Shown: positions 5,816 through 19,393 of the stretch, one piece after another
How positions within the stretch are numbered: position 1 is the first letter of the stretch
Layout of the letters: every line of letters starts with the position of its first letter
Source: Thermoanaerobaculia bacterium
GTDB lineage: Bacteria; Acidobacteriota; Thermoanaerobaculia; Gp7-AA8
NCBI GenBank assembly: GCA_036375075.1
Contig: DASUSN010000211.1
Location: 8,075 to 72,074, forward strand
Length of the DNA: 64,000 nucleotides
Direction: 5' to 3'
Notes under the pieces: model-generated
Database searches by the model: none
The model's input: the letters and a program-made list of their open reading frames with translations, nothing else
Told to the model about the DNA's origin: nothing
Translations under genes and position numbers: made by a program

Positions 5816-5960
5816 GCTTCCCTATCGGCGGAAGGCTTCTGGTTCCTTCGTCCCGGAGGAACCAGAAGCGACGGAGTCGCCGTTCCTGGTGGCTCGCTAC
5901 CGGCGACGGGCCGGGCATGACGTCATGATTCGCCATCCATGGGTCATCTACACTCCCCGG

Positions 5961-8582
5961 ATGCCCGCATCCCCCGACCAGCCGCTCCGCGACGACGTTC
6001 ACCTCCTCGGCGATCTCCTCGGCCAGACTCTCTGCGCGCAGGAAGGAACGGAGCTCTTCGCGATGGTCGAGCGCGTGCGCGCGCTGGCGAAGAGCGGCCG
6101 CGCCGGCAACGCGGACGACTTCGATCGTCTCGCCGAACTGCTCGCCGCGCGGCCGACCTCGGAGACGCTGCCGGTGGCGCGGGCGTTCGCGCACTTTCTG
6201 AGCCTCGCCAACGTCGCCGAGCAGCACCACCGCGTCCGCCGCCGCCGCGACTATCAACGCGACCCGGACGCGCCGCCGCAGCCCGGCTCGTTCGACGAGG
6301 TCATGGCCCGGCTGCGCGAGCAGGGCGTCGCCGAGGACCGGCTGTTCGCGAGCGTCGCCTCGCTGCAGATCGAGCTCGTGCTCACCGCGCATCCGACGGA
6401 AGTCGTCCGCCGTACGCTCCTGCAGAAATACACGCGCATCGGCGAGCTGCTCGCGCGTCGCGATGGTGACCTGACCATCCCGGAGGAGCGCGAGACGGTC
6501 GACGAGCTGCGGCGAGAGATCACCTCGGCGTGGGAGACCGATGAAGTGCGTCACACGCGACCCACGCCGCTCGACGAGGTGAAAGGCGGCCTGTTCATCT
6601 TCGAGCAGACGCTGTGGGACGCGCTGCCGCGTTCCCTCCGCGCGCTCGACGGCGCGCTGCGCACGCACACCGGCCGCGCGCTGCCGGCAGACGCCGCGCC
6701 GATCCGCTTCGGCTCCTGGATCGGCGGCGATCGCGACGGAAACCCGAACGTCACCGCCGCCGTGACCGCCGACGCCTGCCTCCTCGCGCGCTGGGTGGCC
6801 GCCGACCTCTATCTTCGCGAGATCGACGCGCTCCGCTCGGAGCTGTCGATGAAGTCCGGCTCCGCCGAGTTGCCGTCCGTCGACGAGCCGTACCGGGCCG
6901 TGCTGCGCGACGTGCGCGACCGCCTGCGCCTGACCCGCGACTCGATCGAAGCCTCCCTGTCGGCGAACGCGGCATTCGGCACCCGCGGCGAGCTCCTCGA
7001 AACCGGCGACCTGCTCGAACCGCTCCTGCGCTGCCATCGCTCGCTGCATGACACCGGGAACGGCATCATCGCCGACGGCCGCCTGCTCGACATCATCCGC
7101 CGCGTCCACGCCTTCGGCCTCACGCTGGTCCGCCTCGACGTGCGCCAGGACTCCGCGCGGCACACCGCGCTCCTCGACGCCATCACCCGCCAGCTCGGCC
7201 TCGGCAGCTATGCCGAATGGAGCGAAGAGCAGCGCCAGGAGCTCCTGCTCCGCGAGCTCGCCTCGCGACGCCCGCTGATCCCGCGCGATCTCCAACTCGA
7301 CGACGACGCGCGCGACGATCTCGAGACCTTCCGCGCCATCGCCGCCATCCCCCGCTCCTCCCTCGGCGCATACGTCATCACCATGGCCGGCAACCCGTCG
7401 GACGTCCTCGCCGTCGCGCTGCTGCAGAAAGAGGCCGGCGTCGCCGAGCCGCTGCGCATCGTCCCGCTCTTCGAAACCATCGCCGACCTCCGCCGCGCCG
7501 GCGCGACGATGACCGACCTGCTGAGGATCGACACCTACCGCGCCGCCATCAACGGCCGCCAGGAAGTGATGGTCGGCTACTCCGACTCCTCGAAAGACTC
7601 CGGCCGCTTCACCGCCGCGTGGGAGCTCTTCCAGGCGCAGGAACAGATCGTCGCCGCCTGCCGCGCCGCCGAGGTCGAGTTGACGCTCTTCCACGGCCGC
7701 GGCGGAAGCGTGGGCCGAGGGGGCGGACCGACCTATCTCGCCATCGGGTCGCAGCCCCCCGGCTCCGTCGACGGCCGCCTGCGCGTGACCGTGCAGGGCG
7801 AAATGATCCAGGCCGAATTCGGCCTCGTCGGCATCGCATTGCGCACCCTCGAGGTCTACACCACCGCCACCCTCGACGCGACCCTCGCGCCGTCACCCGC
7901 GCCGCGTGACGAGTGGCGCACCGCCATGCAGCAGATGGCCGACGCCGCCGCGCGCGGCTACCGCTCGGTGGTCTACGAGACCCCGCGCTTCGTCGACTAC
8001 TTCCGCGCCGCGACGCCCGAGGCGGAGCTGGGCGAGATCAACATCGGCAGCCGCCCCGCGCGCCGCGGCGGCGGCAAACGCGGCGTCGAGTCGCTGCGCG
8101 CGATCCCGTGGCAGTTCGCCTGGACGCAGAACCGGCTGCTGCTGCCGTCGTGGCTCGGCGTCGACGACGCGCTCCTCGCGGGCGATCCGGCCATGCTCGC
8201 GACGATGATGAAAGAGTGGCCCTTCTTCCGCTCGACCATGGAGCTGATCGAGATGGTGCTGGCCAAGGCGGAGGCGCGCATCGCCGCCTACTACGACCGC
8301 CTCCTCGTCCCCGGCGATCTCCGCGACCTCGGCGAGTCGCTTCGCGAGCGCCTGCAGCGCACCGTCGAGCTGGTGCAGCGCGTGACCGGCCACGAACGTC
8401 TGCTCGAGATCAATCACGCCTTACGCCGCTCCATCGACGTGCGCAATCCCTACGTCGACCCGATCAACGTCGTGCAGGCCGAGGTCCTCCGCCGCCTGCG
8501 GCACGCACCGGACGACTCGTTGCGCGACGCCTTCATCACCACGGTCAACGGAATCGCGGCCGGCATGAGGAATACGGGGTAG
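5961..8582 (+). CDS. ppc: Phosphoenolpyruvate carboxylase
   Basis: 'VLTAHPTE', 'VMVGYSDSSKDSG', 'FHGRGGSVGRGGGP' and C-terminal 'NGIAAGMRNTG'. Start placed at ATG 5961 (MPASPDQPLRDDVHLLG); the ORF-track start at 5889 is less likely. Confidence 0.95.
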   Translation: MPASPDQPLRDDVHLLGDLLGQTLCAQEGTELFAMVERVRALAKSGRAGNADDFDRLAELLAARPTSETLPVARAFAHFLSLANVAEQHHRVRRRRDYQRDPDAPPQPGSFDEVMARLREQGVAEDRLFASVASLQIELVLTAHPTEVVRRTLLQKYTRIGELLARRDGDLTIPEERETVDELRREITSAWETDEVRHTRPTPLDEVKGGLFIFEQTLWDALPRSLRALDGALRTHTGRALPADAAPIRFGSWIGGDRDGNPNVTAAVTADACLLARWVAADLYLREIDALRSELSMKSGSAELPSVDEPYRAVLRDVRDRLRLTRDSIEASLSANAAFGTRGELLETGDLLEPLLRCHRSLHDTGNGIIADGRLLDIIRRVHAFGLTLVRLDVRQDSARHTALLDAITRQLGLGSYAEWSEEQRQELLLRELASRRPLIPRDLQLDDDARDDLETFRAIAAIPRSSLGAYVITMAGNPSDVLAVALLQKEAGVAEPLRIVPLFETIADLRRAGATMTDLLRIDTYRAAINGRQEVMVGYSDSSKDSGRFTAAWELFQAQEQIVAACRAAEVELTLFHGRGGSVGRGGGPTYLAIGSQPPGSVDGRLRVTVQGEMIQAEFGLVGIALRTLEVYTTATLDATLAPSPAPRDEWRTAMQQMADAAARGYRSVVYETPRFVDYFRAATPEAELGEINIGSRPARRGGGKRGVESLRAIPWQFAWTQNRLLLPSWLGVDDALLAGDPAMLATMMKEWPFFRSTMELIEMVLAKAEARIAAYYDRLLVPGDLRDLGESLRERLQRTVELVQRVTGHERLLEINHALRRSIDVRNPYVDPINVVQAEVLRRLRHAPDDSLRDAFITTVNGIAAGMRNTG

Positions 8583-8736: not shown

Positions 8737-9270
8737 CTACGGCGTAAGCAACACCTGATTCCCGGTGACGATCGGCACGTCGCTCTTCTTCATATCGCGA
8801 TCGTCGGTTACTAGGAGACACGACTTCGATCGGCAGGTCTCGACGATCAGCAAGTCGTTGAAGTCTGCACCGCCTGCTTCGAACGCCGCCAGAAAAGGTG
8901 AGAGACTGATGTTCGCGAATGCCGTACCCGTTGGCTTGGCGACGCTGAGGATACTTCTCAGCGAGAGCGCGATGTCCTGCGCGACTGCCTTGAACCCGCC
9001 GCTGTTACGGAACGCTTTGAAATCGCTGCCGCCCGTACGCCGGAACTCGAAGCGAGCCCACGTGTTCGCGAACTCCGACATCACGAGTGCGTCGACAAAG
9101 GTCGGAGCCTTGCTCGATCGGAGACGCTTCACGGCGTCGGAGTAAAGCTGCACCCGCGGGTCGCCGGGAGGCGTCGGACCGTAAACGAGAAACCAGACGT
9201 TCGTATCGAGGAAGTAGCTCGCGGTCGAGTCGAACGCGTACGAACTGATGTCGTACCGCGGAGGTGTCAC
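8737..9270 (-). CDS. PIN-domain ribonuclease (VapC-like toxin candidate)
   Basis: Four acidic positions in PIN order: D in 'FLDTNVW', E in 'MSEFAN', D in 'DFNDLLIV', D in 'VTDDRD'. GTG start at 9270 overlaps the upstream TGA (GTGA). Confidence 0.75.
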   Translation of the reverse strand: MTPPRYDISSYAFDSTASYFLDTNVWFLVYGPTPPGDPRVQLYSDAVKRLRSSKAPTFVDALVMSEFANTWARFEFRRTGGSDFKAFRNSGGFKAVAQDIALSLRSILSVAKPTGTAFANISLSPFLAAFEAGGADFNDLLIVETCRSKSCLLVTDDRDMKKSDVPIVTGNQVLLTP

Positions 9271-9611
9271 TCGTTGAGGGCTCCTGATACGGCAGCTCGG
9301 TACTGCTCTGGATTGCGAAAGAACTCCTTCGCCCGTTCGACGACGCGTTTCAGGAGAAGCAGATGATCGCCCTCCGCATCGGTCACCCGAAGATGCTTTC
9401 GGATCACGTCCTCGTCGAACTCGCCGTAAAGCTGGCCGATCGCTGCGTTGAGAAACGCCGATGTCACGTCCTCGATGCCAGAGAACGAGACAACCACGTC
9501 ATCCTCACGCCGCAGAGCTGTGGCGATCAGATCGTGGACCGCACTGCCGTCCGCGGAGGAAACGGAATGAGGGCTTCCAAGCGCGGCAAGCAAGCTGATG
9601 GATACGCTCAT
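9267..9611 (-). CDS. STAS-like small protein (DUF4325-type)
   Basis: 114 aa. 'DDVVVSFSGIEDVTSAFLNAAIGQLYGEF' matches the DUF4325/STAS-like pattern as I remember it. ATG lies 8 nt after the stop of the ATPase gene; the stop overlaps the PIN start. Confidence 0.6.
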   Translation of the reverse strand: MSVSISLLAALGSPHSVSSADGSAVHDLIATALRREDDVVVSFSGIEDVTSAFLNAAIGQLYGEFDEDVIRKHLRVTDAEGDHLLLLKRVVERAKEFFRNPEQYRAAVSGALNE

Positions 9612-9619
9612 TTGATGGA

Positions 9620-10474
9620 TCAGAAGATCGCCGCCGGGTCGACCTCGCCAGCAAGCTGGTACATCTTACTATCGGCCGTGTTGATTTCGATGTCCACGAC
9701 GGTGCCGGGGAATGGCGCCGCGAGCTTAGCCTTCCCTACGTTCGTCGCCCGGACCCACCAGTAACCACTCTCGGACGCCACTCGGATGGCTCCTCCGTTC
9801 TGTGCGATGAAGTCGCGGATGATCTTCAGCCCCAGCCCACCGGGTACTCGATCCGCGACACGCCGGGTCGTGTTCTGACCGGTCATCGCCCAGTCGATCG
9901 CCTCCGGAGCGGCCAACGCTTGCCCGAGATAGCCGCGCACGCTCGCCGGAATTCCGATCCCTCGGTCAGCCAGGCAGAAATGGAGCCGCTGTTTGGTGGG
10001 GAAGAACTGCCCGCACGCAAAGATGCCGAGTTGCGTTTTCGAGTGGGTCACAGCGTTCTCGAACAATTCGAAGATGCTTCGCCGGAACTCGCGCTGGAGG
10101 CCGACCGTCATGACGGGCAACCCCTTGCCGCGGAAGTTCTGCTCGACGTACGACTTGAAGTCGGCGCTACCCGTCACATCGAACTGTTGGAGGTGAATCG
10201 TGGTTCGATGCGTGTCATCGAGTGCGCCACCGAGGAAACCGTTCTTCCGCAAAATCGTCTCGATCGTCGGCCGCAGTTGTTGAAGAATGATGCGGCGTCC
10301 AGGCGCGACGATCGCGGCAGCGAGTGGCGCGCACATGTTCGCGTCCAGCCACGCGAGACGGCTGCAGTCGACGAGTACGTCACCGGCAGATTCTCGCTCG
10401 ATCGCCGCGTGAATACGGGCGAGATCGTCGAACCCGTCCTGGTCCGTGTTAATCCGATAGGCGTTGATTCTCAT
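9620..10474 (-). CDS. STAS-like N-terminal region fused to a GHKL (RsbW/SpoIIAB-like) ATPase/Ser-kinase domain
   Basis: N-box 'ELFENAVTHS', G1 'ADRGIGIP', G2 'PGGLGLKII'. The N-terminal 'VLVDCSRLAWLDANMCAPL' is STAS-like. ATG 10474 is preceded by AGGAAG. The ORF-track start at 10570 is a GTG without a visible SD. Confidence 0.75.
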   Translation of the reverse strand: MRINAYRINTDQDGFDDLARIHAAIERESAGDVLVDCSRLAWLDANMCAPLAAAIVAPGRRIILQQLRPTIETILRKNGFLGGALDDTHRTTIHLQQFDVTGSADFKSYVEQNFRGKGLPVMTVGLQREFRRSIFELFENAVTHSKTQLGIFACGQFFPTKQRLHFCLADRGIGIPASVRGYLGQALAAPEAIDWAMTGQNTTRRVADRVPGGLGLKIIRDFIAQNGGAIRVASESGYWWVRATNVGKAKLAAPFPGTVVDIEINTADSKMYQLAGEVDPAAIF

Positions 10475-10742
10475 CTTCCTGTGCTCCGGTGAGCCGTACA
10501 CCGTTGCAACCGACGCCACCGCGCGTAACGTCCTCAGAAGTGTCGCACGATCCGCGATGACGAGCTTCACGGCTTCGCGAACGGCCTCTGCCCACCGACC
10601 TTAGACACGTTCAGGCGCGCCGTCGCCGGACGGTGCATCGCCGCGCGACAGACCTGTGCGTGTGTCGCTAACTCCGCAGGTACTGCTCCGTACAGCCGCG
10701 TAATCGAAGGGCTGACCCCACCTAAATTCTCTGGTTAACGGC

Positions 10743-11072
10743 AGTCGGCAAACTTGCCCCACCGGTAGGCGAGCTTGCCCAACTGGTGGGCAACACTGGT
10801 GAGCCCGGTCGGCAAACTCGCACCGCGGGTCGGCAACACTGGTCACGGCGGCGGGCAAGGTCGCCCAGCCGGTGGGTAACACTGGTCAAGCCGGCTGGCA
10901 AACTCGCCCAGCCGGTGGGCATCACTGGTCAAGCCGGCCGGCAACTCGCCCAGCCGGTGGGCAACACTGGTCACGGCGGTGGGCAAGTTCGCCCAACCGG
11001 TGGGCAACACTGGTAACCCCGGCTGGCAAACTCGCCCAATCGGTGGGCAAGCTTACCCACCGGCTGGCATGG
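10743..11072. repeat. Tandem array of about 16 phased 20-22-bp units (43-bp double unit)
   Basis: GGCAA-type cores at 10748, 10768, 10789, 10811, 10832, 10854, 10875, 10897, 10918, 10940, 10960, 10982, 11003, 11025, 11046 and 11066. Type A (CCGGTGGGCAACACTGGTCA) alternates with type B (CCGGCTGGCAAACTCGCCCAG). Several units are internally palindromic (TGGGCAAGTTCGCCCA). Confidence 0.9.
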
Positions 11073-11163: not shown

Positions 11164-13557
<2,394 letters not shown>

Positions 13558-14125: not shown

Positions 14126-14598
<473 letters not shown>

Positions 14599-14604
<6 letters not shown>

Positions 14605-14702
14605 CCTGAGCCGGCGTAGCGCGGCGAAGGACCCCCTGCGGTTCGCGACGACCGCGCATCTATCAGGGGGGTCCTTCGCCGTCTACGCGGCTCAGGATGA
14701 CA
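14599..14702. mobile_element. MITE/REP-like palindromic element, TGTCATCCTGAGCCG family (copy A)
   Basis: About 37-nt terminal inverted repeats: TGTCATCCTGAGCCGGCGTAGCGCGGCGAAGGACCCCC ... GGGGGGTCCTTCGCCGTCTACGCGGCTCAGGATGACA. Second copy at 54717-54821 in the opposite orientation. Confidence 0.8.
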
Positions 14703-14736
14703 GAGCGATTCGCGCACTTTGGAGTGCCCGACACGC

Positions 14737-15849
14737 TCATCTGTCGAGCAGCGGAGGGCCGCCTTTAAGAGCGCGACCGGACCTGTGCAGGTACTGGATC
14801 TCGACATTCCAGCCGCCGCGTACCGCGCGCCGCGCGTTAAAAAGCATTCGATTCGGAAACAACGACTCCGAATCGACGATGAGTGGTGGCCGGCCTTCTC
14901 CTCGGAACGACTCCGGCGCGATGGCCTGGAGCGCTTCGGCCGATCCACTCGAGAATACGGAATGATGTGTGGCGAGGCGAAGCACTCCCTTTGCCCAACG
15001 CTTGTGACGGACGATGAACCGAGTGAGCAAGCGCAGGTCGCGGAGGATCGCCCTTTTGTTTTGCGCCATTCCAAAGAACCTTCGAAGCGCTGAGACCTCC
15101 AAGAAGTGAGCATCGTCGAGCATCTCGTCTACGCGCTCATGGAATGCCGCATCATTGGAAGCGGAAGCGGCAAAGCCGGGCATGTTCACGTTGTTCGTAT
15201 AGCCGGCACGCAACGCAGCCAATACCGCAAGACGTGCAGCGGCTTCTGCCGAGAACTTCGCATTTTCCAGGGAAGAAATCATCCCGTGTGAAACGTCGAC
15301 GCCGAGGTCGACCTCGGCTTGCTCGCGCGAAGCGAGGATCAACAGGTAGGTCTGCCACGCGAGCTGATGCAGCGCGGTCCATGTCGCTTCGATTGTGAGG
15401 GCCTGGTCGAAGTCCGACTTTGGCGTGATCAGTCCTACGGAATCCATGACGGATTCATACATCGGCTCGAAGTATCGATCCACCGCGCTCCACAGCCCGC
15501 CGGTTCTATCGACGATCCGCAGTCGCTTGCGAAACGACGGAGCCGCCAACTCACGCAATCGGCGAGCGTGTGCCCAGGCGTCGCTTGCTGTCGCGGGAAT
15601 GATCACCTTGGTCGCGCCGCGCTCGACAAAGGTCGACAGCGAAGCGTTCAAGGCCGATCCGGCAATCGCCTGACTTTCTGCCCTGACAGGTTCGCCTTCC
15701 AGAAACGCTGACGACAACCCACTCGCTCGAAAGAAGTCCTCGCCTGTCCAGCGGAGAGGGACAGATAAACGCGGCTCCATGACGACGATATTTGCGAGCA
15801 TGCCCTCATTGTCTCGCACGGCGTCCACGTACGCGCCACGGTACGCCAC
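14737..15849 (-). CDS. Hypothetical protein, no recognisable domain (start uncertain)
   Basis: 370-aa ORF with visibly lower G+C than the flanks. Divergent from the SIR2-STAND gene. Candidate starts are GTG 15849, ATG 15801 and ATG 15780, none with a convincing SD. Confidence 0.5.
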   Translation of the reverse strand: MAYRGAYVDAVRDNEGMLANIVVMEPRLSVPLRWTGEDFFRASGLSSAFLEGEPVRAESQAIAGSALNASLSTFVERGATKVIIPATASDAWAHARRLRELAAPSFRKRLRIVDRTGGLWSAVDRYFEPMYESVMDSVGLITPKSDFDQALTIEATWTALHQLAWQTYLLILASREQAEVDLGVDVSHGMISSLENAKFSAEAAARLAVLAALRAGYTNNVNMPGFAASASNDAAFHERVDEMLDDAHFLEVSALRRFFGMAQNKRAILRDLRLLTRFIVRHKRWAKGVLRLATHHSVFSSGSAEALQAIAPESFRGEGRPPLIVDSESLFPNRMLFNARRAVRGGWNVEIQYLHRSGRALKGGPPLLDR

Positions 15850-15946
15850 GGCGAGACGGGCTGCTGCGCCTGTCGAATCGCCAGGTTTTTGGCCGTGCCG
15901 GGTAGGGAAATGGCCGCGCCGGGCCTCTCATGCTGTAGAGGGTCTC

Positions 15947-18900
15947 ATGAGCCGTATCGTCGGGTTCGGCGCGGAGAGGATCGAGCTGCCGTTTCATGCC
16001 GGTCGCGAGGCTGTCGACGAGCGCCGGCGCGTGATGCTCGCGCGCTGTTTGAACCTTCAGACCACGGTGGCTTTCCTCGGCAGCGGATGCTCGGCGCCGC
16101 TCGGCTACCCGCGCTGGCTCGACTTCACCCGTGGCGTGGTGGCCACCACCGCCACCGCTCTTGGCGAGTGCTCCGACTTTGTCCATCAGGAGCTCCGGTC
16201 GCGGCTGGAGAGGATCGCCGCCCGTCTTGCGCGAGCTCCCGCGCCGTCGACGCCGGACATGCTCTTCCATCTGGGGCTGTGCCAGCGCATCGGGAACGAT
16301 CTGGCCCGGGAGCACGGCGCGCCGAATCCGTACGATGACTATCTCCGCGTGACGTTCGGGCGCCCTGACACCGTGGAGCGTCCGGTCGACCCGGAGAACA
16401 ACCCTCACCACGCGCTACTCGAGCTGCCGATCAAGCGGTTCGTCACCACGAACTACGACGTCGAGCTCGAGCTTGCGCTGAGCACCCGCCACGCGGGGCT
16501 CCGGCCCCGCTCCTTCACGCAACGCTCCGAGCACTACGACGAGCTGGCCGCCTTCGCGCTCGCGCACATCCCCGGCACGGAAAACATGGTGTTCCACTGT
16601 CACGGCCGTTATGACGACCTGCCGACGATCGTGGCCACGGAAGCCGACTACCAGCGGTGGTACGTCGACGAGAGCGATCCCGCGGCCGAGACCTTCCGCC
16701 AGAGCCTGCGCCTCCTCTTCGGGTCGAACCCGATTTTTTTCATTGGCTTCGGCATGGAGGACTACGACCTGCTCGCTCCCCTGCGGCTGTTGAATACGGA
16801 TCGCACCCAGCAGCGCACGCGCGCGCGCCAGTTGTTCGCCCTCATGCCGGAGGCCGAGGGCGACGACGAGGCGCGGGATCGGAGCGACCAGCTTTACGAG
16901 CGGTACGGGGTGCACGTGATTCCATACCGCAAGCCGGACGGCGGCGCGTCCGAGTGGGGGCGCGCGCTCTGCCGGGCGCTGAAGCAGATTCGCAACGAGT
17001 GGTGCGATGCCCGCGACGAGTTCCTCGCCAAACCCGTCATCCGTAAAGTGAGCGTCCCGGCACGGCCGCGGGAGCCTTATCTCCACTACGCGCTGGACCG
17101 CGGCGACGCGGCCGACATCGCGCCCGAACGGACGAAGGAGGATCTGCGGGAGCTGCAGAAGCTGATCGCCGAGCCGGGCATCGTCGTGGTGTACGGCTCG
17201 GGCGGCAGCGGCAAGAGCTGGCGCGTCCTCGAGCTGCTCGATCGCGTGCAGCAGAACCGCGGATCGTTCCAGTTCCACGGCGTGTTTTTCTGGTCCTCCT
17301 ATTACGCCGACGATTGGCTCACGGGACTGGACCGGGTTCTGACTTACCTCGACAGCCCCATCCGCCCGCGCTCGACGCGTCTGCAGCGTTTCGAGGACTC
17401 GCTCAAAGAGCGGCACCTGATCGTCTTCGACGGGTTCGAGCGGCTGCTGCGCGAGAAAGGAGCGGTCGAGGCGGGGACTCCCTACAGCCGCGCCGTGGAG
17501 CGCATCCTCGAGATGGCCCGAGACGGCGAGTCAACGGTGGTGCTGACGACGCGGCTGCAGCCGGACGTCCTGGAAGAGGGCAAGCGCGTACGTCTCTTTC
17601 CGATGCGGCGCCTCACCACCGAGGATCTCGAGAAGGGGCAACCGTTCGCGTCTCTGCAGCGCCAGGGACTGACGGTCGACGACGTCAGTGCGCTCTGCTC
17701 CCTCTGCGAAGGCCACAGTTATGCGCTCGCCCTGGCGGCGGCACACATCGGCGCCGCCGGTCCGGCTCACGTGGTCGACCGGATGACGCGGTTGCGGCGG
17801 GAGCTCTCGCTGGTCTCGCCGGCGCGGCGCATCGCGCAGGTCATCAGGATGGCGATCGAAGACGTCCGCGCCCGCACGAGTCCGAAAACCACGGAGCTCC
17901 TGGAGCGCCTGTCCATCTTCATGAGTCCCGCCACCGATGCCACGATCGAGATCTGTTGGGGCGACGAGCCGCACCTCGACGATGCCCTCGACGCGCTCCG
18001 CACGGCGCGCTTGATCTTCCCGGTGCAGGCGCATCCCGCCGGGGGCACGGAGCCCGGCTACACGGTCCATCCCACCGTGCGCACGTACATGTTCCACCAG
18101 GATCGCTGGGAGGAATCGGATTCGCTGCCGAACTTCACGCTGGCCGGCTTCACCTCCGGCAACGCACCCGTCCATCCCGGGAAGGGGAAACCTCTCCGGA
18201 TCTTCAAGAGCGTTTTCGAGCTCCTCTGCCACGCCGCCGAGCGCGCCATGGACGAGGGACAGACCGACAAAGCGCGCGAGCTCTGTCGCAGCGCGTTCGG
18301 AGTGCTCCGCTCGCGCACCGAAGCCAATTCCGCGGCGCGATGGACGAACTACGACGACTACATCGATCGTGGCGTCAAGCTCTCCAACCTCCTCAAGCGC
18401 GTCTCACCCCCGATGTGGGACTACCTCGAGCGTCTCCACGCGCAGACCAAGGAATTGCCCGAGGGACCTCTGCACGCCGACGAACTGGCGTGGTTGTGGA
18501 ACGACATCGGGCTGGCCTTCTACGCCCAGGGCGCCATGGCCGACGCGTACGCGGTGTGGGAGCTCGGCTACGAGATCACGAAGGTCACCGACAGCGAAGA
18601 AGGCGGCCAGTACACCGTCCAGTCGCAGCTCGAGATGATGGGGGTGTTCCTGGAGATGGGCCGGCTGGGCACGGCCGCGGAGTACCTGACGCAGGCGGAG
18701 AAAGCGAACGAGAAATACGGCGACCGCGACTATCGCGCCCGGTTGATGGGCTACCGCGGGCTGCTCGCCCATCTGCGGAACAACTTCGACGAGGCCGAGA
18801 CCCTGTACGCCGAGGCGCTGGAGCTGTTGCGGCGATCGGGAAAGCGGAACCTGCGCGCGATGAGCATCTTCACGCAGCACTGGGCCGACCTCAAGCTCGC

Positions 18901-19393
18901 GAAGAAAGAGCTCGAGGAGGCCCGGGACCTCATCCGCAGCAGCACGTCCATGGCGAATGAAGGCGGTCATGTGGACCTGGTGGCGTACGCGCGGAACTCG
19001 CACGCCCACCTTCTGCGCGCGCAGCGCCAGTACGTGGAGGCGCAGGCGGAGTACCGGTCGATTCTGGAGGAGGCGCGAAGGATCGGCCTCCGGCGGCTGG
19101 AGGCGGACGTACTGTCCGAGATGGCGCGCCTGGCGCTGGAGCTGGGCGACTGGAACACGGCGCGCACCCGGGCCATCAACGCGCTGATGGTCGCCAATGG
19201 ACTCGGCCTCGGCCTCCGCCGCACCCATGGTCTCGTCGTTCTCGGCCTGGCCATGATCCAGGCCCGCAACCCGAAGCTGGGAGCCGCGTATCTGCGGCAT
19301 GCGTGGAGCCTCGCGCGCACGCAGGGGTATCAGCTCCGGGCGGACGAGGCGGCGCGCAGGCTTCGCGAGATCGGTGAAGAACTCCCGGCCTGA
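15947..19393 (+). CDS. SIR2-like domain + NB-ARC/STAND NTPase + TPR array (Avs / bacterial NLR-like protein)
   Basis: SIR2_2-type motifs 'FLGSGCSAPLGYPRW', 'FVTTNYD', 'FHCHGRYDD' and 'IFFIGFGMEDYDL'. Walker A 'YGSGGSGKS', Walker B 'LIVFDGFE', 'VVLTTR', GLPL-like 'CEGHSYALALAA'. About 350 C-terminal residues are TPR-like helices. Start taken at ATG 15947 (MSRIVGF). Confidence 0.85.
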   Translation: MSRIVGFGAERIELPFHAGREAVDERRRVMLARCLNLQTTVAFLGSGCSAPLGYPRWLDFTRGVVATTATALGECSDFVHQELRSRLERIAARLARAPAPSTPDMLFHLGLCQRIGNDLAREHGAPNPYDDYLRVTFGRPDTVERPVDPENNPHHALLELPIKRFVTTNYDVELELALSTRHAGLRPRSFTQRSEHYDELAAFALAHIPGTENMVFHCHGRYDDLPTIVATEADYQRWYVDESDPAAETFRQSLRLLFGSNPIFFIGFGMEDYDLLAPLRLLNTDRTQQRTRARQLFALMPEAEGDDEARDRSDQLYERYGVHVIPYRKPDGGASEWGRALCRALKQIRNEWCDARDEFLAKPVIRKVSVPARPREPYLHYALDRGDAADIAPERTKEDLRELQKLIAEPGIVVVYGSGGSGKSWRVLELLDRVQQNRGSFQFHGVFFWSSYYADDWLTGLDRVLTYLDSPIRPRSTRLQRFEDSLKERHLIVFDGFERLLREKGAVEAGTPYSRAVERILEMARDGESTVVLTTRLQPDVLEEGKRVRLFPMRRLTTEDLEKGQPFASLQRQGLTVDDVSALCSLCEGHSYALALAAAHIGAAGPAHVVDRMTRLRRELSLVSPARRIAQVIRMAIEDVRARTSPKTTELLERLSIFMSPATDATIEICWGDEPHLDDALDALRTARLIFPVQAHPAGGTEPGYTVHPTVRTYMFHQDRWEESDSLPNFTLAGFTSGNAPVHPGKGKPLRIFKSVFELLCHAAERAMDEGQTDKARELCRSAFGVLRSRTEANSAARWTNYDDYIDRGVKLSNLLKRVSPPMWDYLERLHAQTKELPEGPLHADELAWLWNDIGLAFYAQGAMADAYAVWELGYEITKVTDSEEGGQYTVQSQLEMMGVFLEMGRLGTAAEYLTQAEKANEKYGDRDYRARLMGYRGLLAHLRNNFDEAETLYAEALELLRRSGKRNLRAMSIFTQHWADLKLAKKELEEARDLIRSSTSMANEGGHVDLVAYARNSHAHLLRAQRQYVEAQAEYRSILEEARRIGLRRLEADVLSEMARLALELGDWNTARTRAINALMVANGLGLGLRRTHGLVVLGLAMIQARNPKLGAAYLRHAWSLARTQGYQLRADEAARRLREIGEELPA

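Follow-up and report, generated by a model that had tools for sequence, protein, structure and literature searches.

A probable vapKSC operon, a kinase-gated toxin-antitoxin and anti-phage module, in an Acidobacteriota genome

Three tightly packed genes in the genome of a Thermoanaerobaculia bacterium very probably form a vapKSC operon, the published circuit of which is a type II-like toxin-antitoxin and anti-phage module gated by a kinase. The genes lie in a window of 64,000 nucleotides, the whole stretch of DNA that we analysed (assembly GCA_036375075.1, contig DASUSN010000211.1, positions 8,075 to 72,074; positions given below are those of the window). They encode, in this order, a kinase-like protein with STAS-like and GHKL domains (gene 1, the vapK homologue), a small STAS-like protein (gene 2, vapS) and a PIN-domain nuclease (gene 3, vapC). 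The original prediction for this locus proposed a partner switch gating the PIN toxin, in which the STAS protein restrains the nuclease and the GHKL protein releases it, as in toxin-antitoxin or abortive-infection systems. This proposal is supported, both by the published vapKSC model, with which it coincides, and by homology. The novelty claimed for the triad is not borne out: vapKSC was described by Chambers, Rani, Min, Villa & Corbett (EMBO J 2026, PMC13373217), and the name has been in use since February 2026, when the work appeared on bioRxiv (10.64898/2026.02.02.703251), ahead of its publication in EMBO J in June 2026. In fact, the linkage of PIN and DUF4325 genes had been noted already in 2017, in the PIN.4 subgroup (Matelska et al., PMC5499597). 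What is new here is only one further, divergent member, from a phylum that we did not find in the published catalogue: 'acidobacteri' matched no entry in Dataset EV3, which lists the vapKSC operons.

The published circuit is that of Escherichia sp. E4736. VapC of this strain is toxic unless D28 is mutated, and VapS neutralises it within a VapS2VapC2 heterotetramer, the crystal structure of which was obtained at 3.4 A (PDB 9Z7O; PMC13373217). In this structure, S48 of VapS lies buried at the interface, and VapS brings its C-terminal helix to a distance of about 6 A to the active site of the toxin (PMC13373217). Deletion of the VapS C-terminus or the S48E substitution abolishes neutralisation, and the phosphomimetic S48E protein no longer binds VapC or co-purifies with it (PMC13373217). 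Against phage Bas42, the Escherichia operon protects by about 2 logs; this protection requires VapC D28, VapS S48 and VapK F54, and S48A abolishes it (PMC13373217). The phosphorylation of VapS by VapK and the activation of VapK by single-stranded DNA (ssDNA) were drawn from the related kinase CapK and from AlphaFold 3 models; VapK was insoluble (PMC13373217). All three residues that were mutated in that study have a match in the window operon: S48 corresponds to S51, D28 to D22 and F54 to W42, where the aromatic character is kept.

The protein encoded by gene 1 aligns with Escherichia VapK (WP_135559716.1, with the sequence given in Appendix Table S2 of PMC13373217) over residues 8-278 against 12-295 by BLASTP (expect value, E, 4e-29; 27% identity), and hhalign pairs the two from end to end with a probability of 99.9%. 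Pfam recognises a HATPase_c domain (27.5 bits, cut-off 26.4) and, below threshold, STAS_2; it finds no helix-turn-helix (HTH) domain. Searched singly against the PDB, the sequence has marginal matches only, to histidine kinases. The AlphaFold 2 model of the protein (predicted local distance difference test, pLDDT, 89.6; predicted template-modelling score, pTM, 0.88) is matched best, among compact structures, by the anti-sigma kinase SpoIIAB (1tid_A, target-normalised template-modelling score, TM, 0.75; probability 1.0), and it also resembles further GHKL ATPases. A profile built from 40 gene 1 homologues matches the STAS antagonist TM1442 (1sbo_A) at positions 19-79 and the ATPase domains of histidine kinases at positions 117-244. 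Together with the sub-threshold STAS_2 hit, the TM1442 match upholds the N-terminal STAS-like segment that had been proposed for gene 1. The motifs quoted for the protein (FELFENAVTHS, DRGIGIP and GGLGLKII) are all present in the sequence, and they contain the three ATP-binding boxes of the GHKL fold. Across the 40 homologues, N140 and H144 of the N-box, D170 and G172 of the G1 box and G212, G213, G215 and L216 of the G2 box are invariant, while E136 and G174 are conserved in at least 90% (residues are numbered on the 284-residue protein). The aromatic residue that is predicted to contact ssDNA is recovered as well. The BLASTP alignment pairs RLAW-LDAN of gene 1, which contains W42, with HCRF-LRPN of VapK, which contains F54; the VapK numbering was taken from the AlphaFold 3 model file of the paper, which has a 5-residue N-terminal extension and in which these residues are H51-C52-R53-F54. 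Conservation of W42 reaches at least 90% in the alignment of the gene 1 family, and the residue is predicted to be the equivalent of VapK F54 and CapK W68 (an equivalence that the paper itself draws), the aromatic residue that would stack on ssDNA.

The second gene was described at the outset as a 114-residue STAS-like protein of the DUF4325 type, which is what we find: Pfam assigns DUF4325 ('STAS-like') with an E of 3.4e-15, and the sole match in a phmmer search of the PDB is Escherichia VapS itself (9z7o_A, E 2.3e-10, residues 17-108 against 32-122). At S51, the candidate phospho-acceptor, the 80 sequences compared have serine in 77 cases and threonine in the other 3. At the C-terminus, residues 94-114 pair with VapS 91-110 and share with it the conserved A94, K95 and F98, and Pfam detects no DNA-binding domain in the protein.

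Gene 3 was said to encode a PIN nuclease with its acidic positions in place. In agreement with this, Pfam scores a PIN domain (27.4 bits, cut-off 23.6), and a model built by AlphaFold 2 (pLDDT 92.1) matches PAE2754, VapC2, several Mycobacterium tuberculosis VapCs and FitB with a probability of 1.0. As a single sequence, the protein had no phmmer match in the PDB; the profile of its relatives has one only, Escherichia VapC (9z7o_C, E 8.6e-14, positions 3-179 against 9-192). Direct pairwise BLASTP between the two proteins gives 4e-04 and 18% identity. The profile alignment sets lllDaNiw, which contains D22, against flvD28tNvw of VapC, and D22, N24, E66, D136, D139, D157 and D159 are invariant among 39 sequences. 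Pfam calls are thus available for all three proteins, and the two marginal ones, for genes 1 and 3, are backed by the structural models.

To account for these features, we envision that the operon works as its Escherichia counterpart is proposed to. In an unstressed cell, the STAS domain of VapS would bind VapC, and its C-terminal helix, placed by the active site, would block access of the substrate. Upon phage infection or DNA damage, ssDNA would bind in the interdomain groove of VapK and stack on W42, and the kinase activated in this way would phosphorylate VapS at S51. Phosphorylated VapS would then leave VapC, freeing a Mg2+-dependent nuclease (D22, E66, D139, D157/D159), presumably an RNase, to act; the freed VapC would arrest growth and abort the infection. 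This chain is weakest at the kinase step and at the ssDNA trigger, both inferred for all VapK proteins, and at the RNA target.

Phosphotransfer might also be secondary in this circuit, or absent, if ATP-bound VapK took VapS away from VapC stoichiometrically, in the manner of SpoIIAB and SpoIIAA. Such sequestration would suit a GHKL fold that is closest to SpoIIAB, a protein that phosphorylates its STAS partner as well as binding it, and a Pfam HATPase_c score that is marginal; moreover, the kinase activity of VapK has itself only been inferred, the protein being insoluble (PMC13373217). We nevertheless hold it to be improbable. An acceptor serine or threonine is conserved in 80 of 80 sequences, and the N, G1 and G2 boxes are invariant. 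In Escherichia, S48A abolishes protection and S48E is by itself sufficient to disrupt VapS-VapC binding, and the homologous CapK phosphorylates S54 of CapS in vitro (PMC13373217). The phosphorylation-driven circuit thus remains the reading that we prefer.

How tightly are the three genes linked in other genomes? In a scan of the GTDB species representatives, 258 relatives of gene 1 were confirmed, and 80 of them were retained as loci. In 78 of these 80, the gene immediately after the vapK homologue is a vapS homologue, and the complete K-S-C triad, the co-occurrence of which the partner-switch proposal depended on, is present in 76; the contigs of the other four end before the missing genes. 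The PIN gene is therefore found in every locus where it could be looked for (76/76), across phyla. This synteny bears on a much more ordinary view of gene 1, namely that it is the remnant of a sensor kinase, or an anti-sigma factor, with a sigma factor or PP2C partner encoded elsewhere and the PIN gene as an unrelated neighbour. Database labels lean that way: in Joint Genome Institute annotations, 'signal transduction histidine kinase' and 'anti-sigma regulatory factor' both occur as names of homologues, and NCBIfam gives matches to histidine kinases, although these are weak and far under the cut-offs. This view can be given next to no credence, being effectively refuted by the conserved synteny, in which the PIN gene follows at all testable loci. 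The family also has no HisKA/DHp domain and keeps a fixed length of about 285 residues, VapS was crystallised in complex with VapC (PDB 9Z7O), and neither the operon nor the genes adjoining it encode a sigma factor or a PP2C phosphatase, as had been pointed out from the start.

The hosts of the 80 loci belong to many bacterial phyla and include archaea (Methanothrix, Methanosarcinaceae). We take Legionella rubrilucens WA-270A-C2, one of these hosts, to be the same strain as ATCC 35304. The genomes of this Legionella locus (L046) and of another from the metagenome-assembled genome (MAG) DeMMO2_3 (L053) both appear in the vapKSC list of Dataset EV3. Judged by sequence relationship, the window operon is therefore a member of a clade that is already catalogued as vapKSC. 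The published search found 289 vapKSC operons in IMG, 36% of them at most 10 kb from a PADLOC defence gene (PMC13373217). Our survey, which reached 805 protein clusters of VapK-like sequences at E <= 0.001 besides the 258 GTDB relatives, puts the size of the family above this number. Among plasmids and phages, the system turned up in a single plasmid record and in two records of phages; it is not typically plasmid- or phage-borne in the collections searched.

Several loci depart from the usual arrangement. Contig CBDBHT010000007.1, from a MAG of Candidatus Azotimanducaceae, carries two complete triads about 105 kb apart (L023 and L027). At another locus (L064:467-2463) the order is permuted, with the VapS and VapC homologues (467-1382) upstream of the VapK homologue (1588-2463). 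In two further loci (L083 and L084), an unannotated gene of 265 codons sits 14 nt upstream of vapK. Finally, the Francisella hispaniensis prophage FhaGI-1 encodes a 293-residue hypothetical protein followed by a 112-residue DUF4325 protein (Fhv_0046/0047), placed between a cI-type repressor and an integrase (PMC7924643). Their sizes fit a VapK/VapS-like pair, and the next gene encodes a 125-residue transmembrane protein, not a PIN protein (PMC7924643); the pair could represent a variant that has another effector.

In the window, the three genes are packed on the minus strand exactly as had been described: the list of open reading frames (ORFs) and our direct reading of the sequence confirm an 8-nt spacer (tccatcaa) between the stop of gene 1 and the ATG of gene 2, and a 4-nt overlap, GTGA, in which the stop of gene 2 meets the GTG start of gene 3. 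The frame of gene 1 is open further upstream, up to a GTG at 10570 (9620..10570, 316 residues). The 805 gene 1 homologues are mostly 283-290 residues long, cover 90% of the 316-residue ORF and have N-termini that align with its M33, so the start of gene 1 is likely the ATG at 10474, which is read with AGGAAG just upstream, rather than the GTG at 10570. The protein records of this MAG that match the window are HEX6100590-592, among which the NCBI/PGAP model of gene 1 (HEX6100591.1, 316 residues) starts 32 codons (10475-10570) upstream of the ATG used by nearly all homologues; this annotation is probably too long. The G+C content of the operon, noted earlier as lower than that of its surroundings, is in fact 0.60-0.615 against 0.68-0.72 in the flanks on both sides. 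A scan for sigma-70 promoters and terminators returned a single internal match, near chance expectation.

Table 1. Positions of the vapKSC homologues, of key codons and motifs within them, and of neighbouring features in the window
Feature	Position	Strand	Description
vapC homologue (gene 3)	8737..9270	-	177 aa; PIN-domain nuclease, GTG start; toxin by homology
D22 codon (gat)	9205..9207	-	gene 3; catalytic aspartate by alignment with Escherichia VapC D28
vapS homologue (gene 2)	9267..9611	-	114 aa; DUF4325/STAS domain and C-terminal segment of about 20 aa; antitoxin by homology
S51 codon (tcg)	9459..9461	-	gene 2; predicted phospho-acceptor, equivalent of Escherichia VapS S48
vapK homologue (gene 1)	9620..10474	-	284 aa; N-terminal STAS-like domain and C-terminal SpoIIAB-type GHKL kinase domain
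G2 box GGLGL, G212-L216	9827..9841	-	gene 1; GHKL motif, from conservation in 40 homologues
G1 box DRGIG, D170-G174	9953..9967	-	gene 1; GHKL motif, read in the sequence
N-box ELFENAVTH, E136-H144	10043..10069	-	gene 1; GHKL motif, inside the Pfam HATPase_c match
W42 codon (tgg)	10349..10351	-	gene 1, 284-aa numbering; aligns with Escherichia VapK F54
PEP (phosphoenolpyruvate) carboxylase gene	5889..8582	+	convergent with the operon
Tandem array	10777..11050		between the UvrA-like gene and vapK; 43-nt period, 6.4 copies, 81% matches
UvrA-like ABC ATPase gene	11164..13557	-	797 aa; directly upstream, co-directional; PGAP name UvrA
SIR2_2 + AAA_16/NACHT + TPR gene	15779..19393	+	1204 aa; SIR2-STAND (Avs-like) architecture

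What surrounds such operons elsewhere? For at least 70 loci, we examined the largest ORF located up to 3.5 kb away on either side, 138 ORFs in total. The commonest Pfam families among them are ResIII (13), N6_N4_Mtase (8), N6_Mtase (6) and AAA_15 (5), and Eco57I, Type_ISP_C, Methylase_S and DUF1156 are likewise present. Restriction-modification and ATPase families are thus the commonest in the flanks, which independently supports a frequent defence-island location of vapKSC and bears on the question of enrichment near defence genes that had been raised with the prediction. Closer relatives of the window operon lie beside RecQ and RNase D-like genes (65% identity), beside Patatin and Fic genes (L083:266-3488, 77% VapK identity) or beside a Septu-like pair of AAA_15 ATPase and HNH_2 genes (L086:362-3194, 78% VapK identity). 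Since relatives at 65-78% identity sit in such unrelated neighbourhoods, the triad moves as a unit.

The same circuit could serve mainly as a growth-arrest toxin-antitoxin system responding to DNA damage or stress, for persistence or for stabilisation of a genomic islet, rather than as a dedicated anti-phage system. The immediate neighbours in the window, a PEP carboxylase gene and a UvrA-like gene, fit such a role, as does the rarity of the system on plasmids (one record) and in phages (two records). Only 36% of the 289 published operons lie at most 10 kb from a PADLOC defence gene, the reported protection concerns a single phage and amounts to about 2 logs, and CapK responds not to phage alone but also to the ssDNA that nucleotide excision repair generates from mitomycin C damage (PMC13373217). 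We nevertheless regard a mainly stress-related role as the less likely one, if a serious contender. Against it stand the prevalence of restriction-modification and ATPase defence families among the 138 flanking ORFs and the Septu-like AAA_15+HNH, Patatin and Fic genes next to relatives. In addition, phage protection by the Escherichia operon needed all three components (PMC13373217), and the window itself holds a SIR2-STAND gene within 10 kb of the operon.

Upstream of vapK, the two nearest features are a tandem array and the UvrA-like gene. Each 43-nt unit of the array consists of two half-units of about 21 nt that begin with TTGCC and contain internal dyads: GCCCACCGGNTGGGC; GCCGGCCGGC. The RNA predicted from the array folds more stably than shuffled sequence (z = -4.8), a stability that fits the internal dyads and gives no pointer to function. 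Since its period is not divisible by 3, the array is probably non-coding. The window contains no further copies, and Rfam has no matching family. The repeat array announced ahead of the operon is therefore real, but as a part of the system it falls away: we rejected it as a vapKSC component, as nothing similar occurs in 86 related loci and the window has no other copies. The UvrA-like protein is shorter than canonical UvrA and matches the PADLOC models 'mad3' (E 1.4e-70) and 'mad8' (E 1.3e-30). As a linked component, the UvrA-like neighbour was likewise rejected, with no UvrA-like ORF at the 86 related loci (E <= 1e-10). We treat its adjacency as coincidental because no related locus has such a neighbour.

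It is conceivable that the window system differs from that of Escherichia in its trigger or in its RNA target, since its clade is distant (27% identity in VapK, 18% in VapC) and has a tryptophan instead of a phenylalanine at the proposed sensor site. Joined to this is the idea that the neighbouring UvrA-like gene and array couple the operon to ssDNA from excision repair; the activation of CapK by mitomycin C does require UvrA and UvrB (PMC13373217). We consider this joint reading very improbable, and neither neighbour recurs at the related loci.

The SIR2-STAND protein further upstream combines a SIR2_2 domain (E 1e-17), a NACHT-like NTPase and TPR/MalT-like repeats, and its PADLOC matches (the ThsA, Dsr1 and LmuA models) are confined to the SIR2 part. 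The operon had been placed in an island with this gene. The gene is indeed there, within 10 kb, but 'island' is a loose word for it: about 5.3 kb separate the two, with three genes in between (UvrA-like, a glyoxalase and an unknown ORF). We regard the SIR2-STAND gene as a neighbour and not a component of vapKSC. Its 5' end falls in a second patch of low G+C (14500-16000, G+C about 0.60-0.61). The same patch contains an ORF of 370 codons on the minus strand (14737-15849) with no Pfam or PADLOC match, which shares about 70 nt with the beginning of the SIR2-STAND ORF on the other strand; this ORF may be spurious, or else a partner gene.

Several points weigh against assigning this locus to vapKSC with its published function. 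Pairwise BLASTP gives low identities to the Escherichia proteins, 27% with VapK and 18% with VapC, and the operon is flanked by genes of housekeeping type, PEP carboxylase and UvrA-like, with the SIR2-STAND gene, about 5 kb off, as its sole defence-like neighbour. No model of PADLOC v2.0 (2023) matches any of the three proteins; this silence is uninformative on novelty because the database predates the description of the system. Even for Escherichia, the kinase and ssDNA steps of VapK rest on the analogy with CapK and on AlphaFold 3 models (PMC13373217). Function in the Thermoanaerobaculia host is a matter of homology and predicted folds, all experiments having been made on the Escherichia homologue.

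Set beside its relatives, the locus is closest to VapKSC of Escherichia sp. E4736, with the same three proteins, the same K-S-C order and equally tight coupling of the genes; the acceptor serine, the catalytic aspartate and the aromatic position for ssDNA stacking are kept. It differs in its divergence (27% VapK and 18% VapC identity, VapS at E 2e-10), in having a tryptophan, as in CapK, instead of a phenylalanine, and in its host, an Acidobacteriota (Thermoanaerobaculia) MAG in which the system is known from sequence alone. CapK and CapS, an HTH-STAS-GHKL kinase and a STAS repressor with a winged HTH (wHTH), form a related pair in which ssDNA-activated CapK de-represses immune operons, among them CBASS, Bub and others (PMC13373217). 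The window system would share with this pair a kinase made of GHKL and STAS domains, a conserved serine on the STAS partner and, by analogy, the response to ssDNA, and its W42 occupies the aromatic ssDNA-contact site of CapK W68. Unlike CapK, which has an extra N-terminal HTH, and CapS, which is a DNA-binding wHTH repressor, the window proteins have no HTH or wHTH. The output differs too: CapK-CapS act on transcription of the downstream operon, whereas the STAS protein here is the partner of a PIN toxin and the predicted output is release of a nuclease.

The classical partner switches, SpoIIAB/SpoIIAA and RsbW/RsbV, resemble the window system in the fold of the kinase (1tid_A, TM 0.75), in a STAS substrate with a conserved phospho-serine and in the change of partners. 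In those modules it is the kinase that holds a sigma factor, whereas here the STAS protein would hold the effector, a nuclease. The kinase is moreover fused to a STAS-like domain, the proposed ssDNA sensor, and the operon has no PP2C gene. Classical partner switching is defined by a sigma factor output, usually with a PP2C phosphatase; the conserved third gene of the window operon encodes a PIN nuclease instead. Canonical VapBC and PIN.4 systems have in common with it the PIN/VapC fold, the acidic active site and a small neutralising protein encoded immediately upstream. A canonical VapBC antitoxin is a DNA-binding protein (RHH, ribbon-helix-helix; AbrB, HTH or PHD), whereas the gene upstream of vapC here encodes a DUF4325/STAS protein. 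VapS also leaves the catalytic Mg2+ in place, unlike the canonical antitoxin (PMC13373217), and release is proposed to occur by phosphorylation and not by proteolysis of the antitoxin.

The locus raises no question of its own: the literature already poses those of direct proof for the kinase activity of VapK, of ssDNA as the trigger and of the RNA that VapC targets. Its interest lies elsewhere: the architecture that was recovered from raw sequence is one that was characterised experimentally only in 2026, and the locus adds an Acidobacteriota member to a large family in which the K-S-C linkage is essentially complete.

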